Below are positions 36,116-42,642 of a stretch of DNA of 64,000 nt, in pieces (position 1 is the stretch's first letter; every line of letters starts with the position of its first letter). The stretch comes from Bacteroidota bacterium. Lineage in GTDB: Bacteria; Bacteroidota; Bacteroidia; CAIKAF01. Made by a program: the position numbers and the translations under genes. The notes below the pieces were generated by a model, which saw nothing but the letters and a program-made list of their open reading frames with translations, had not been told where the DNA came from and did not search any database. Location: the NCBI GenBank assembly GCA_016866335.1, contig VGMT01000010.1:3144-67143 (forward strand). Direction: 5' to 3'.

Positions 36116-37582
36116 CTACAGGAATTCTTGGCCATCATTTTGATTCCCCATTTTCAAAACCATGTCGCCTATATTATAGCAATACAAGGCGGCGGGAATG
36201 AATGAAACCGCCACCTCATCAACTGTTTTAATTCCTACACGGTCAATTGAGGTAACCAAAGCGCGCTTAAATTGGTTGACTTTGCAAAAATGGATTAGAC
36301 TTTTCAATTCGTGGGGGTTTTCGTAAAAACGATTGCTCCATTTTACCTCGACACCCCATTGGGGTTTGAAATTTTTGCCGTCCAACAACACAAAATCGAC
36401 TTCACCTTCGATTCTACCTTCCTTCCAACGTGCATAGGTTAAATCAAAATAACCTAAGTGCATCCATTGCGACAATACAATGGTTTCGACCATATTCCCC
36501 ATTTCAGGATCTGTTTCACCAATGGGTGAAAATAAAGCTGAACGCAACGATGGATTGGTTAAATAGACTTTGAAACTGCTAATTCGCTGTAGTCGTTTTG
36601 CTGAGGCATCTACCCTGTTTAATACCCTAATTAAGAATGCCGCTTCCAGGTATTCCAGGTATTTTTTAAGAGTGGCCTTTTGTATTCCACTTTCATTGCT
36701 CATTTTTTCGAACGAAAATTCATTGCCCGTGTTGTAAGCAATGTACAAGAAAAACCGGTTTAACTCCTGTACATCTTTTATACCATACAAACTGGGTAAA
36801 TCTCTTAGTAAAACCTTATCGACAATGTCGTTTTTAACATACCTACCCATATCGCTTTGAATTCGTTCATTCAAAACAATTTCAGGAAATCCACCAAAGT
36901 TCAAGTAATGTAAAAACTCCATGTTTAAGGCCTTTACATCGTGGGACAAAAAGAAAGGAATTTTGTTTTCACCGAGGTTAATATTCCCGGGATACATTAA
37001 ATGACCCCTATCTTTTAAATGAATGTACTCCTTAAAAGTAAGCGGTGGCAGCATAAAATCTGTAAACCTTCCTGCTCCACTTTCTGTACTAAACCATTTC
37101 AATGCTGCGGCTGCCGAACCCGAAACGATAAATTTGGTTTCTGGAAAAGAATCAACCAAAACCTTAAGATGCCGTTCCCAGTCTTTTAGGTATTGTATTT
37201 CATCAAAAAAAACGTAGCAACCTTTTATGCTTTCTTGGTTAACAGCTTGTTTGCATAAATTCAAAATATCTTCCAAACTTAAATTCACATAAATGGGATT
37301 GTCAATACCCACGAAAAATATATTTTTAGGATTCACCTTTTCAGACAACAATTGCTGAATGCTATGAAACAACATAACGGTTTTACCCACCCTTCTTGGC
37401 CCCATTAAAACCAACGCTCTTCTCACCTTATTTTCAACTACAAGTGGATAAAACAAGTCAAAATAAAGCCGTTTTGCCATTGAGCTAAATACTTCGGGTA
37501 TTTGCTTATTGACCCACCAAGGATTTTCATACCGCAAACGTTCTTGTATTTTATAAGATGGAATTAGATTCATAGCAGCCAA
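36116..37582 (-). CDS. AAA+ ATPase, DUF4143-type
   Basis: 488 aa. Walker A LMGPRRVGKTV and Walker B VFFDEIQY. The C-terminal region is typical of the widespread AAA plus DUF4143 ATP-binding protein family. Confidence 0.8.
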   Translation of the reverse strand: MAAMNLIPSYKIQERLRYENPWWVNKQIPEVFSSMAKRLYFDLFYPLVVENKVRRALVLMGPRRVGKTVMLFHSIQQLLSEKVNPKNIFFVGIDNPIYVNLSLEDILNLCKQAVNQESIKGCYVFFDEIQYLKDWERHLKVLVDSFPETKFIVSGSAAAALKWFSTESGAGRFTDFMLPPLTFKEYIHLKDRGHLMYPGNINLGENKIPFFLSHDVKALNMEFLHYLNFGGFPEIVLNERIQSDMGRYVKNDIVDKVLLRDLPSLYGIKDVQELNRFFLYIAYNTGNEFSFEKMSNESGIQKATLKKYLEYLEAAFLIRVLNRVDASAKRLQRISSFKVYLTNPSLRSALFSPIGETDPEMGNMVETIVLSQWMHLGYFDLTYARWKEGRIEGEVDFVLLDGKNFKPQWGVEVKWSNRFYENPHELKSLIHFCKVNQFKRALVTSIDRVGIKTVDEVAVSFIPAALYCYNIGDMVLKMGNQNDGQEFL

Positions 37583-39627: not shown

Positions 39628-39948
39628 ATGAAAACAACCCCTGCTATATTGCCTAAAAACATGAAGATTTTAAAAGATCTGGGTGAGCATATACAGTTAG
39701 CTCGCTTGCGCCGAAAATTGAGTGCAGAGCAAATGGCTGAGCGCGCGGGACTAGGCAGAAAAACGATTTATAATATAGAACAAGGCAGCCCAACTGTTGC
39801 CATTGGAAGGTATTTACAGGTGCTCTTTGTATTGGGATTAGAGAAAGATTTAACCCAAGTTGCAGCCGCAGACCCTTTGGGCCGAAAACTGCAAGATGCC
39901 GGAATCATTACCCATAAGCGTGCACCCAAACAAAACAAAAAGTCATGA
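39628..39948 (+). CDS. XRE-family helix-turn-helix transcriptional regulator
   Basis: HTH LSAEQMAERAGLGRKTIYNIEQG. 106 aa; an internal Met at 39661 is an alternative start. Confidence 0.65.
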   Translation: MKTTPAILPKNMKILKDLGEHIQLARLRRKLSAEQMAERAGLGRKTIYNIEQGSPTVAIGRYLQVLFVLGLEKDLTQVAAADPLGRKLQDAGIITHKRAPKQNKKS

Positions 39949-40129
39949 AGGACATGAAATTTGGAATCAGGAATGGCGAGATTGAACAATTGAAGCCTGC
40001 GTTTCGGTTGGTGGTTCATGCCTAGGTGTAAAAAATGAAACAACTACCATTCCTCTGCGGGTATTTCCCTCGGGGCATGTAGCCATTGCAAAAACCTCCG
40101 GAGCTTAAAGGTCCGGATGGGTTCTGCTG

Positions 40130-41424
40130 TTAATTCGGGACGACCAACCGAAAGCCCCAGTCGTTGGTGCGGTAGGAAGGAAAGCCGGCGCCGCGGCCAG
40201 CCGAGCGGCAAGCCGCGCTGTAGGCGCGCCAGCCGCCCCCACGCAGAACCCGATCCGACCCCGATGATGGACCTTCGGGGTTGGTTTGGGCACCGCTGGA
40301 ATAACCTCCATACCAATCGCTGCACCACTCCCAAACATTACCGTGCATATCGTACAAGCCCCAGGCATTGGGAGCATAGGAGCCCGCGGGCTGGGGTTTT
40401 CCAAGGAATGTTCCTTGTGCGCAGGTGGAATAGGGATAATTGCCATCGTAATTCGCCTCGCTGCTGCTTAAGCAGCTTCCCGTATTGAAGGGGCTTGTGG
40501 TTCCTGCCCGGCAAGCGTATTCCCATTCCGCCTCGGTTGGCAGCCGGCAGCCCATCCATTGGGCAAAGGCCGTGGCGTCGTTCCAATCTACATTAATTAC
40601 TGGCCTATTGCCACGCCCCCACCCTTCATCAGATGGCTTTGTTCTTCCCGTAGCATCGCAAAAGGCGTCGTACTGAGCAAAAGTCACCTCCAACTTGCTC
40701 ATTTTAAACCCGCTTAAAGTCACCGAATGCTGGGGGCCTTCGTTGCTTCCCCGGTCGGATTCAAAACTTGGGCTGCCCATCGTAAAGGTTCCGGCGGGGA
40801 TTGAAACCCATTGAATGATTGGGAAGATAGGATCTATTCCAACAGAAAAGTTTTTAGACCCGTAATTGTTTTGGGAATCATAAACAGTTAAACTGTAATT
40901 CCCAGGCAGTAAGTTGAAGATATTTGGTCCTGTACCTCCGTTTGACCAAGCATATGTATATGGCGGCACACCTCCGTTTACTATTGCGGTGGCAGTGCCA
41001 TCAGCGGTGTAAGGTGTACTGGCTACTGTCGAGTTAACCTGAATGGCTAAAATATTCCCACCTGACAAAACTCCAATTTCAAACGACACCGAGTCTATAA
41101 CTCCGATTGCATCTACAACAACAACATTGTAAAAACCAGGCAACAGGTTGAATCTTAACGAATCTGAGCCACCACCATTTGACCATTGATATACATAGGG
41201 TGGACTCCCCCCCCCTTCACCTGAATAATTGCCTGTCCATTTGCTATACCAAGGCCTGAAGCATCAACCTTAGAAACCGATATAGACAAGACGGAATCTG
41301 GATTAAAACAAGTCCAATTTAGTAAGTTAAATAAAAAAACTACGGACAGTAAACCATAATAATTTCGAGAAAACAAACCCGAATTTTGTTTGACTCTTGA
41401 AGGTGAATTATTAAAAATCTTCAT
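40130..41424 (-). pseudogene. SprB-repeat / formylglycine-generating-enzyme (FGE-sulfatase, SUMF1-like) domain surface protein, frameshifted at a G9 homopolymer
   Basis: Track ORFs 41155..41424 (signal peptide, then ...IIQVKGGGVHP*) and 40130..41143 (SprB repeat GGVPPYTYAWSNGG, then FGE domain ...GFRLV). Removing one G from the G9 run (coding strand; C9 on plus at 41207-41215) reads KGGSPPYVYQWSNGGGSDSLRFNLLPGFYNVVVVDAIG, a perfect SprB repeat continuous with the downstream ORF. Confidence 0.7.
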
Positions 41425-41917: not shown

Positions 41918-42168
41918 AAGGTGGACTGCAAAAGTAATCATTCAGGCTTTTCATGCAAATATTTTTTTTGATAAGATTTACCACCCTTGGTAGTTCATTA
42001 ATATACCTAATTTTGATTTGTGAACCCGAAGTTGTTTTCCCTGCTAATCATTTTAGGCCTAGGCATGTATACCTGTGGCTACAACCCATCGCCGGTTCAG
42101 GAACCTACACCCATTTAGGTTCAATCTACCTTTTCTTTTTCTTTGAAAAACAGCGCTTGGAGTTCGGC

Positions 42169-42642
42169 ATGGTCTGCAGAAAATCGGCTTCAAGTCGCCA
42201 TGCCTTCCATTCCCTCAAACCTAAATCCCTTTGCAAACCCAACCTCGACAGGCCAAGCCATTCAACGACAACTCCAATTAATGCGGGAATTTTCGCTGCC
42301 CATTTTCAAACCTGGATTAAGGCAGAAACCCTTCGCCCCTTTTTTAAAACTGCCTTAGCCAAAGGACTTAGTCCCTTGATGGCCTTGTTGGTTCATGCCC
42401 TTAGAGCCGCCCTTGGCCTAATTCTTACCTTTTTTGTGCAGCGCCTTCCTTTGCTTTTAAGCGGCACCGTGGTTATTGAGGTTATGTTTGGCATTCCTGG
42501 GTTTGGTCGGCTGGCCTGGCTGGGGGTTTTAGAAAACGATTCCTCGGTGGTGCTGGGCTGCCTGCTCCTGGCGGCGCTGGCCGGCTGGGTTTCTGTGTAC
42601 CTAAATGGGTTGTTAACCAAATACCGCATTTCAATCCAATGA
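42169..42642 (+). pseudogene. ABC peptide-transporter permease (DppB/OppB-like) C-terminal remnant
   Basis: Only the last roughly 110 aa (LVHALRAALGLILTFFVQRLPLLLSGTVVIEVMFGIPGFGRLAWLGVLENDSSVVLGCLLLAALAGWVSVYLNGLLTKY) resemble the conserved EAA-loop/C-terminal region of DppB/OppB permeases. The upstream portion of the 229-aa track ORF has no permease similarity. Confidence 0.4.

Follow-up and report, generated by a model that had tools for sequence, protein, structure and literature searches.

The interrupted locus described here is probably a recently inactivated gene for a surface lipoprotein of the type varied by diversity-generating retroelements (DGRs), with SprB repeats as spacers. It lies in the window, i.e. 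the whole 64-kb stretch of DNA analysed. The locus would encode a diversified ligand-binding surface lipoprotein, not a formylglycine-generating enzyme (FGE), with its C-terminal ~40 codons being a variable region of the kind that a DGR writes. In the Lake Tanganyika lineage, a run of seven Gs (G7) in the codons for Lys-Gly-Gly-Ser, where the first SprB motif begins, would have become G9, the gain of two Gs being most simply ascribed to replication slippage. Ribosomes passing the G9 would be out of frame and meet a stop 16 codons on, and the signal peptide would be uncoupled from the remaining protein, so that the exported product would not be made. A retroelement to do the rewriting is not nearby. 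The allele, in a gene otherwise intact, may be a pseudogene of recent origin or an OFF state that has lasted long, a young dead gene being most likely. The features are as follows.

40130..41424, minus strand: whole interrupted gene (lipoprotein signal, two SprB units, predicted FGE-subtype C-type-lectin domain, C-terminal variable region), from frames, Pfam and in-frame orthologues
41308..41424, minus strand: probable lipoprotein (SPII) signal peptide, from inspection of the sequence by eye
41155..41424, minus strand: upstream ORF of the G9 allele, ATG start, 89 aa (last 16 codons out of frame) plus stop
41207..41215, minus strand: G9 homopolymer (C9 on the plus strand), from sequence, frames and relatives
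41054..41289, minus strand: SprB repeat unit 1, with the frameshift falling in its GG-x-PPY-x-Y-x-W motif
40820..41053, minus strand: SprB repeat unit 2 (NGGVPPYTYAWSNGG; GGA GGT, without a homopolymer)
40142..40813, minus strand: FGE-sulfatase (PF03781) domain, predicted FGE-subtype C-type-lectin fold, from Pfam, NCBIfam and PDB matches
40135..40262, minus strand: predicted DGR-type variable region (~40 last codons), homologous to the template repeat at L009:4862-4995
40066..40133, minus strand: conserved 3′ element, starting at the TAA stop (40130-40132) and otherwise non-coding

The run is exactly nine long (C9 at 41207-41215 of the plus strand, G9 on the coding minus strand), is the longest G/C homopolymer of the window and, as the sequence-only reading had stated, lies between an N-terminal and a downstream ORF. 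It splits one gene into ORFs of 89 and 337 codons. Since the tract, at codons 70-73, sets the reading frame, each length was translated: G7 and G10 keep the frame, which G8, G9 and G11 lose. With G7 the reading is KGGSPPYVYQW, earlier attributed to eight Gs, and the repaired product has 430 aa; with G10 it is KGGGSPPYVYQW, in a product of 431 aa. G8, which had been put forward as the frame-restoring length, instead leads into the third frame (...KGGESTLCISM...) and then to a stop. Relative to the G7 of in-frame relatives the lesion is a gain of two Gs, or relative to a hypothetical G10 a loss of one, and not the single insertion originally envisaged. The tail of the upstream ORF also differs from the ...GGGVHP ending given before: its 16 out-of-frame codons end ...KGGGVHPMYINGQMVVAQIR, followed by the stop. 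In GenBank this ORF (41155..41424) is hypothetical protein MBM3170936.1 (FJZ75_04905). The downstream frame is open to the stop at 40130-40132 without further lesion, and full-length in-frame orthologues (P0001, P0002, P0005, P0007) support a single-gene layout, in keeping with the initial view that a poly-G frameshift has broken one gene for a signal peptide, SprB repeats and an FGE-fold domain.

The signal region has basic residues, a hydrophobic stretch, YYGLLSVVFLFNLL, and then NWTC, with Cys39; the motif NW[STNGC]C-F-[ND]-P-D is kept in orthologues, and an SPII signal with lipidation at Cys39 is probable. A profile search of the repaired protein, one of the checks proposed at the outset, matched both PF13573 and PF03781. 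The former is matched in two stretches (E=2.3e-10, 40.4 bits against a gathering score of 28), and the two SprB repeats probably act as a stalk. The Flavobacterium gliding adhesin SprB has PF13573 repeats with the same GG-x-PPY-x-Y-x-W-SNGG motif; here, in contrast, there are only one to three repeats, forming a short N-terminal spacer, and a T9SS C-terminal sorting domain is missing because the C-terminus is the variable region.

A frameshift in a homopolymer, a classic site of error, in a record that is a metagenome-assembled genome (MAG) invites the suspicion that the gene is really intact, with a tract of G7 or G10, as the sequence-only reading allowed of an assembly error. That is scarcely credible here. 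The exact 89-aa frameshift product is present on at least 15 contigs, and the ten that were retrieved (nine from JGI and one, separate, from ENA with a k141_ name in the MEGAHIT naming style) all have G9. Their identity is 99.9-100% over the covered parts of the 1381-bp locus, with nine being 100% identical there and L013 having one mismatch. Eight of the nine JGI sample IDs appear in a list of Lake Tanganyika samples, each of which was assembled individually with metaSPAdes from Illumina HiSeq 2500 2x150 reads. Because the exact product recurs in independent assemblies, assembly error is effectively excluded. The departure from relatives is moreover by two bases, where the usual error is by one in either direction, and the other checked genes of the window are unbroken: a search for suspicious overlapping ORFs, as expected of an indel-prone assembly, gave only candidates that are complete genes. 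The G9 allele is real, and the assemblies from the population show no other state. Exact look-ups of the G6, G7, G8, G10, G11 and G12 products among ~15 billion proteins gave none for this haplotype, and a protein-cluster search gave no full-length cluster of more than 90% identity. These tract lengths come from consensus assemblies, which hide minority lengths.

At the same site, close in-frame relatives have G7 (AAG GGG GGG AGT) or G8 followed by AT, with strain L007 being both in frame and syntenic (RecG, OmpA-like, MnmE, HTH, target). JGI metagenome contigs scanned for the pattern of the tract flanks yielded just two loci, both G7. Further away the run is lost. The distant orthologue L010 has GGA GGG GAA instead, the codons for Gly-Gly in other SprB repeats form no long homopolymer, and conservation of the tract is limited to near-identical relatives; the proposed comparison of orthologue tract lengths thus finds a homopolymer in close relatives and not in L010. 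Comparison of the window allele with relatives gives dN/dS of 0.28-0.52, as against 0.18-0.49 among intact relatives. The suggestion that inactivation is fresh agrees with these values, no higher than among intact relatives, and with the intact downstream frame. The same two features, intact frame and unrelaxed dN/dS, suit a reversible OFF state equally with a young pseudogene.

Slipped-strand phase variation, in which G9 is OFF and slippage to G10 (or G7) turns the gene ON in a subpopulation, was part of the original proposal. The tract is located 5′ in the coding sequence of a surface protein, close relatives differ in state (G7, G8 plus AT, G9), the 337-codon downstream frame lacks any other lesion, dN/dS is not raised and one +1 slip would restore the frame. 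Tracts of G8-G13 are hypermutable in Campylobacter, Neisseria and Haemophilus systems, and in the poly-G contingency loci of these genera, as here, a G homopolymer in 5′ coding sequence sets the frame of a surface protein. The differences from such loci are considerable. Within the lineage the assemblies reveal no length polymorphism: G9 is the tract in all ten retrieved contigs and in all of the at least 15 with the 89-aa product, and the other lengths of the haplotype are missing from the 15 billion proteins. Relatives that are ON have G7 only, which is short for a dedicated switch, and the tract is not kept in the wider family, being without counterpart in L010 and in all other SprB repeats. 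Nor is the window enriched in G/C runs. Its single G9/C9 run compares with a mean of 1.8 in dinucleotide-preserving shuffles, 75 of 100 of which have at least one, so that one such run in 64 kb is no excess over chance. In addition, G9 is two steps from G7, via or past another OFF state, a path of the sort that relaxed selection would permit. With positive evidence lacking and the haplotype assembled with G9 only, phase variation is an unlikely explanation. A more elaborate version, a two-layer system in which a receptor diversified by a remote DGR is also switched ON and OFF by poly-G slippage, is quite improbable; equally so is its assignment of states, with G7 ON, G8/G9 OFF, G10 ON and the Tanganyika population now OFF. 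Phage or grazers are examples of a pressure on the receptor that could favor an OFF phase in such a system.

Recoding could be thought to rescue some expression from the G9 allele, either by the polymerase adding a G or by ribosomes slipping -1 on G_GGG_GGA, to yield a low level of full-length protein reading KGGGSPPY.... The shift needed is in the -1 direction, the same as one added base, the run offers an X_XXY_YYZ-like heptamer and the downstream frame is intact. Transcriptional slippage on A/T runs becomes efficient at nine nucleotides (PMC1088944), the length of the present tract, but that literature concerns runs of A and T, not of G. The relatives are in frame, hence this is not a conserved programmed event, and the RNA after the tract lacks stable structure (fold z-score -0.63). 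Any product would be adventitious, and recoding is very unlikely to account for the locus.

What the inactivated gene would encode is a separate question from the state of its tract. The name that NCBI gives to the ORF is SUMF1/EgtB/PvdO family nonheme iron enzyme; the sequence-only reading was of two SprB repeats with a complete FGE-sulfatase domain and enzyme function. The domains were borne out by Pfam, PF03781 being matched with E=6.8e-60 over profile positions 4-254 of 255; the function was not, the catalytic cysteines being missing. Cys336 of human FGE is opposite a gap in the alignment, the counterpart of Cys341 is a Ser inside a hypervariable stretch, and the pair is also missing from orthologues. 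For a surface-displayed formylglycine-generating or iron-dependent oxidase on an SprB scaffold there is thus the naming, the strong Pfam match and the PDB matches to human and bacterial FGEs at ~1e-37. Against it, in addition to the cysteines, variation in the family is greatest in the very segment where the active site would be, a sulfatase gene was not found among the listed neighbors, and TvpA of Treponema denticola, with the same fold and system (PDB 2Y3C, matched at E=1.1e-24), lacks FGE activity (PMC5758913). Membership of the named enzyme families was considered and rejected, NCBIfam equivalog scores being far below the cut-offs (PvdO 103 against 500, EgtB 101 against 360, GldK 88 against 350, GldJ 28 against 458). 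The enzyme reading is therefore highly improbable, and the domain is, as judged from profile and structure-database matches, of the FGE-subtype C-type-lectin fold. An AlphaFold2 model from a 46-sequence alignment, with pLDDT 47, was of too low a quality to bear the fold out.

One of the major classes of DGR target is the FGE-type C-type-lectin domain, and HRDC is a known DGR accessory gene (PMC5758913, PMC6328139). Two related loci, L009 and L030, have an HRDC-type DGR architecture, the order in L009 being target, HRDC, RVT_1 and template repeat. When the variable region of the window is set against the L009 template, which is that of another organism and not the cognate template of the window gene, differences occur at 24 of 32 adenine sites and at 6 of 96 others (Fisher p=6.5e-14), i.e. 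24 of the 30 differences sit on template adenines. For the two variable regions of L009 itself, all 15 differences from its template are at adenines. Either a somewhat different template of its own or drift of an orphaned target would explain the six non-adenine differences. Alignment columns in which the 46 homologues show 10-15 residue types all correspond to adenine-containing template codons, chiefly AAC and AAT. The 68-nt 3′ element, which starts at the stop, matches the flank of both L009 targets at 61 of 68 positions and comes after all variable regions examined in the family; the L009 template carries it inverted. It contains a short TCCGGA hairpin, not significant as a DNA hairpin (z=0.05), and is a candidate homing or target-recognition element. 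Taken together, the template-adenine pattern, the fold and the 3′ element mark the predicted product as a DGR-type variable (target) protein.

The machinery itself was sought in several ways. There is no YxDD reverse transcriptase motif in window ORFs of at least 100 aa, low-stringency blastn of 40100-40900 against the window gave no template repeat, the fetched flanks gave none either, and there are no RVT_1 matches in the 10 kb past either window end (the contig being extended via edge proteins). With neither reverse transcriptase nor template within ~84 kb, the gene can at most be called a putative member of an active DGR system in this genome; remote targets, more than 100 kb away, have been documented (PMC5758913). 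The search for reverse-transcriptase homologues of the L009 enzyme gave no Tanganyika copy. Of the multi-source candidates the best was P0125, which was set aside, being from other samples and having a template unrelated at the DNA level. When GTDB genomes were scanned for the pattern of the variable-region scaffold, one Lake Erken Flavobacteriales MAG proved to have three variable regions; a template was not found there. The Tanganyika contigs that reach the variable region carry an identical copy, with no ongoing diversification visible at the consensus level.

The closest known parallel is the TvpA system. TvpA is likewise of the FGE-subtype C-type-lectin fold, its adenine-templated variable region is again C-terminal, the HRDC-type DGR of L009 and L030 is of the ‘Treponema type’ (PMC5758913), and the Treponema DGR also has remote targets (PMC5758913). 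It differs in that here the domain comes after a lipoprotein signal and SprB repeats, one to three in number, the host is a freshwater member of the Bacteroidota, the copy is frameshifted and the cognate reverse transcriptase and template are not within ~84 kb. LdtA of Legionella pneumophila is likewise a surface lipoprotein that exposes a diversified C-terminal C-type-lectin domain (PMC5758913), though its class is DUF1566-type, not FGE-subtype, and for the present protein surface exposure is inferred. Human SUMF1 and bacterial FGEs share the Pfam domain and the fold (best PDB E-values ~1e-37), but in function the present protein is not one of them, the catalytic cysteines being missing, the active-site segment hypervariable and no sulfatase partner nearby.

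The main value of the analysis is corrective: a DGR-type hypervariable binding protein is missed both by the database name and by reading the gene as a surface FGE enzyme. A search of independent assemblies for the exact truncated product also serves as a read-free test of homopolymer frameshifts in MAGs. The architecture, thought unusual when the sequence alone was considered, is not unique: SprB+FGE lipoproteins are a small family in freshwater Bacteroidota. If the tract does switch, two mechanisms of hypervariation would be coupled on one gene, and a literature search for such coupling of DGR diversification and tract switching did not find it described. With the preferred reading, of a recently inactivated receptor gene, attention is drawn to a natural population where a diversified surface receptor gene has been disabled and where many samples from a single lake yield the broken form alone at assembly. 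Selection against display of the receptor would fit such a pattern, as would an orphan target in decay.

The upstream reading frame of the gene starts at an ATG at 41424 on the minus strand and reads MKIFNN...IIQVK before meeting a run of nine Gs. In this G9 allele the frame past the tract is GGGVHPMYINGQMVVAQIR, with a stop at 41155-41157 closing an ORF of 89 codons (not the ending in VHP ascribed to it by a sequence-only reading), and a second frame is uninterrupted from the tract to a TAA at 40130-40132.

41207-41215, minus strand (C9 on the plus strand): G9 tract, read from the sequence
40130-41143, minus strand: downstream ORF, 337 aa, TTG start, from the mechanical ORF list

GenBank annotates the downstream ORF likewise (P0004, ‘SUMF1/EgtB/PvdO family nonheme iron enzyme’). 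The homopolymer and split gene of the sequence-only reading are borne out, but its proposal that eight Gs restore the frame is not: when the gene is rebuilt in silico with every tract length, G8 and G11 lead to the third frame with a stop ~45 codons on, and it is G7 (...VKGGSPPYVYQWSNGG...) and G10 (...VKGGGSPPYVYQW...) that are in frame. The presence of such a run is statistically unremarkable, with 1 G9/C9 run observed in 64 kb against 1.8 expected.

A search covering 5.8 billion protein clusters yields in-frame orthologues of 429 aa with 88% identity (P0002), 509 aa with 72% identity (P0005), 508 aa with three SprB repeats (P0001) and 338 aa with one (P0007). The comparison of orthologue tracts that had been suggested finds a homopolymer at the same position in close relatives, being AAG GGG GGG AGT (G7; KGGS) in three related loci (L001, L002, L007) and AAG GGG GGG GAT (G8 then AT; KGGD) in three others (L003, L004, L005). 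L007 is syntenic with the window (RecG, OmpA-like, MnmE, HTH, target). Since the closest in-frame relatives are G7, the window allele is +2 G, and not the single G insertion first supposed. Only this close clade has the homopolymer; the orthologue at 72% identity (locus L010) has GGA GGG GAA there. The remaining SprB repeats encode Gly-Gly as GGA GGT or GGA GGG, and of the window's glycine codons GGG is used least (16%).

The exact 89-aa frameshift product is present, on at least 15 contigs, in a protein collection from NCBI, JGI, ENA and Logan. All ten contigs retrieved (one from ENA, its k141_ name being in the MEGAHIT style, and nine from JGI, each from a different sample) have G9. Over the covered part of the 1381-bp locus nine match the window at 100% identity, the other (L013) has one mismatch in 1125 bp, and the variable region dealt with below is unchanged in every one extending that far. 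Eight of the nine JGI sample IDs appear in the list of a Lake Tanganyika study that used HiSeq 2500 (2x150) per sample and metaSPAdes assembly sample by sample. Other suspect overlapping ORF pairs in the window proved to be complete genes. Given the repetition of G9 across separately assembled samples and the unbroken ORFs elsewhere, the alternative that the tract is an artefact of assembly or platform, which the sequence-only reading had left standing, is very unlikely indeed. What is seen is one gene with a G7-to-G9 difference and a premature stop, in an allele that is population-wide.

A profile search of the repaired protein, also proposed earlier, matches two SprB repeats (PF13573) and a full FGE-sulfatase domain (PF03781, E=6.8e-60). 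Its N-terminus has basic residues, a hydrophobic stretch of 14 residues and NWTC, within an NW-x-C-F-(N/D)-P-D motif kept in all orthologues, and is probably a lipoprotein signal with Cys39 as the putative lipidation site. Near-identical orthologues differ in their SprB repeats: L001 and L007 have a single one, the window and L003 have two, and L002 and L010 have three, a sign that the units often recombine unequally. GC content is ~42% in the SprB part and ~54% in the FGE domain (window 40130-41424, L001, L007, L002 and L010 compared), consistent with a domain common, at ~80% identity, to many unrelated architectures, among them kinase, trypsin and PEGA fusions.

When the orthologue 3′ ends are aligned, differences are almost only in NNC codons within invariant scaffolding, the signature of a diversity-generating retroelement (DGR). 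A 710-aa protein with an FGE domain 82% identical (P0033) is located in L009, a related locus. Directly after its gene come an HRDC gene, a reverse transcriptase gene (RVT_1) and a copy of the gene's 3′ end spanning 134 bp (GGSWNNNGRNCRSANRNNNEPSNRNNNIGFR). As the two L009 variable regions differ from this copy at 15 and 15 positions, all template adenines, the copy is a bona fide template repeat. The corresponding stretch of the window was compared with it:

40135-40262, minus strand: variable region, 128 bp

Against this heterologous template, 24/32 adenine sites and 6/96 other sites differ (p=6.5e-14). Among 46 homologues, every column with 10-15 residue types falls on a template codon that contains adenine (chiefly AAC and AAT), with near invariance in most of the columns in between. 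Solved-structure matches include human FGE (~1e-37) and TvpA, a DGR variable protein of Treponema (2Y3C; 1.1e-24). The FGE-type enzyme of the sequence-only reading fares poorly, the catalytic cysteines being lost: Cys336 of human FGE falls in an alignment gap, and Cys341 corresponds to a serine within the hypervariable stretch. Membership of PvdO, EgtB or GldK/J was rejected, NCBIfam scores being far below cut-offs. According to published surveys (PMC5758913, PMC6328139), FGE-type C-type-lectin domains are ~19% of DGR targets and bear many different N-terminal fusions, TvpA is without FGE activity, HRDC-type cassettes are the ‘Treponema’ DGR architecture, and targets may sit >100 kb from the reverse transcriptase. 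Judged from its variability, absent cysteines, low family scores and these surveys, the FGE domain is no enzyme but a ligand-binding module that is diversified.

Four of the ten Tanganyika contigs (L013, L015, L019, L020) end inside the FGE domain at window ~40330-40610, just upstream of the variable region. Assembly breaks of this kind are to be expected where the genome or community has several copies of the domain, or where the reads show micro-heterogeneity in the variable region.

Was any other tract length of the Tanganyika haplotype ever assembled? At consensus level, exact look-ups in the protein collection gave no match for the full-length G7 and G10 proteins of the window haplotype or for its truncated G6, G8, G11 and G12 products, and the 5.8-billion-cluster search yielded no full-length cluster with >90% identity, so G9 is the sole state at that level. 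We conclude that the gene is OFF in the Lake Tanganyika population. The downstream 337 codons are without further lesion, and dN/dS (variable region excluded) is 0.28-0.52 for the window allele versus relatives and 0.18-0.49 among intact relatives. An intact frame and dN/dS in the intact range imply that the frameshift is young relative to the sampled divergences, or that the gene is intermittently used. Reversible switching of the tract may occur, as may low-level read-through of G9, but positive support is lacking for both. Past the tract the RNA has no structure of a kind to promote −1 frameshifting (z=-0.63), and the transcriptional slippage documented is for A/T runs of about nine, G runs not being covered (PMC1088944). 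Of the phase-variable or freshly inactivated gene first envisaged, the OFF state and otherwise intact frame stand and the switching is without positive support. The frameshift itself is nothing out of the ordinary, presumably a slippage mutation in a homopolymer. That DGR diversification and a poly-G ON/OFF switch are combined in the same gene is improbable; the literature searched for both mechanisms yielded one paper, with a single mention of a DGR.

Replication slippage would be the mutational mechanism of the G7 to G9 change. The intact protein would presumably be exported as a lipoprotein and displayed at the surface, the SprB repeats (between one and three units in orthologues that are nearly identical) perhaps serving as a spacer of variable length and the variable face probably binding ligand; function would be lost by uncoupling of the signal peptide from the protein body. 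The nearest known counterparts are TvpA, which shares the fold subtype and the type of cassette, and LdtA of Legionella, which shares the logic of display as a lipoprotein. An SprB-repeat spacer with a DGR target domain is not seen in the available portion of a DGR survey (PMC5758913); SprB-type N-terminal fusions are expected in the FGE-type target class.

The surroundings of the gene include:

39628-39948, plus strand: HipB-like HTH gene (HTH_31), adjoining the target
36116-37582, minus strand: AAA_14/DUF4143 gene, in the window and not in L007
41631-41917, minus strand: tRNA Ser-Pro-Arg cluster, just upstream of the target gene
41953-42642, plus strand: 229-aa ORF, matching BPD_transp_1 profile positions 82-170/184 only

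In L007 a hipA toxin gene lies between the HTH gene and the target; it is absent in the window, where a 180-bp gap is left, and a HipA_C gene is beside the target also in L001 and in locus L011. The 229-aa ORF, whose N-terminal half looks non-genic, appears to be a 5′-truncated ABC permease gene abutting the tRNA cluster, which hints at past rearrangement or insertion there. About 5 kb past the window's low-coordinate end, a Tanganyika contig (L026:5424-7659) encodes a pair of PTL_trimer proteins. One of them has a domain of the Lcl_C type (PF07603), a fold that is another C-type-lectin-like class serving as DGR target.

Downstream of the variable region lies a conserved element:

40066-40133, minus strand: conserved 3′ element, ~68 nt (TTAACAGCGGGAACCATCCGGACCTTTAAGCTCCGGAGG...), starting at the stop codon, otherwise non-coding
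L009:3256-3330 and L009:4984-5021: its L009 counterparts

It follows every variable region examined (those of the window, L007, L001-3, both L009 targets and three genes in a Flavobacteriales MAG from Lake Erken); the window copy is identical to that of L009 at 61/68 positions. In L009 the reverse complement of the element's first ~32 nt comes after the template repeat. An IMH/IMH*-like pair that is inverted and not direct may have a bearing on how this HRDC-type DGR family primes or homes. In L002-L005, and not in the window, 78-bp duplicates of the variable region 3′ end plus conserved element (L002:1822-1899, L003:3666-3743, L004:1871-1948, L005:1988-2065) lie ~155 bp downstream of the stop, flanking a ~230-bp insert with a GGGAATTCCCGC/GCGGGAATT hairpin; duplicate and insert may be the scar of 3′-end replacement or a small mobile insert. 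The Lake Erken MAG, CAILUT01 (contig loci L021, L022, L023), has three or more, and probably four, distinct lipoprotein genes with an FGE domain, spread over two contigs, with individually diversified variable regions and a common 3′ element. It is a multi-target system, in which the pattern used captured no template repeat.

Neither reverse transcriptase nor template repeat was found within the 64-kb window or in 10 kb beyond either end, and a search for a Tanganyika reverse transcriptase via homologues of the L009 enzyme gave only unrelated DGRs of the same architecture. The six differences from the L009 template at sites other than adenine leave two readings: a cognate template of slightly different sequence, or orphan drift of the window variable region. 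Between the window, L007 and L001 the variable regions resemble one another and therefore have not been rewritten since the strains diverged. If the window gene is a decaying orphan target, its frameshift is unsurprising.
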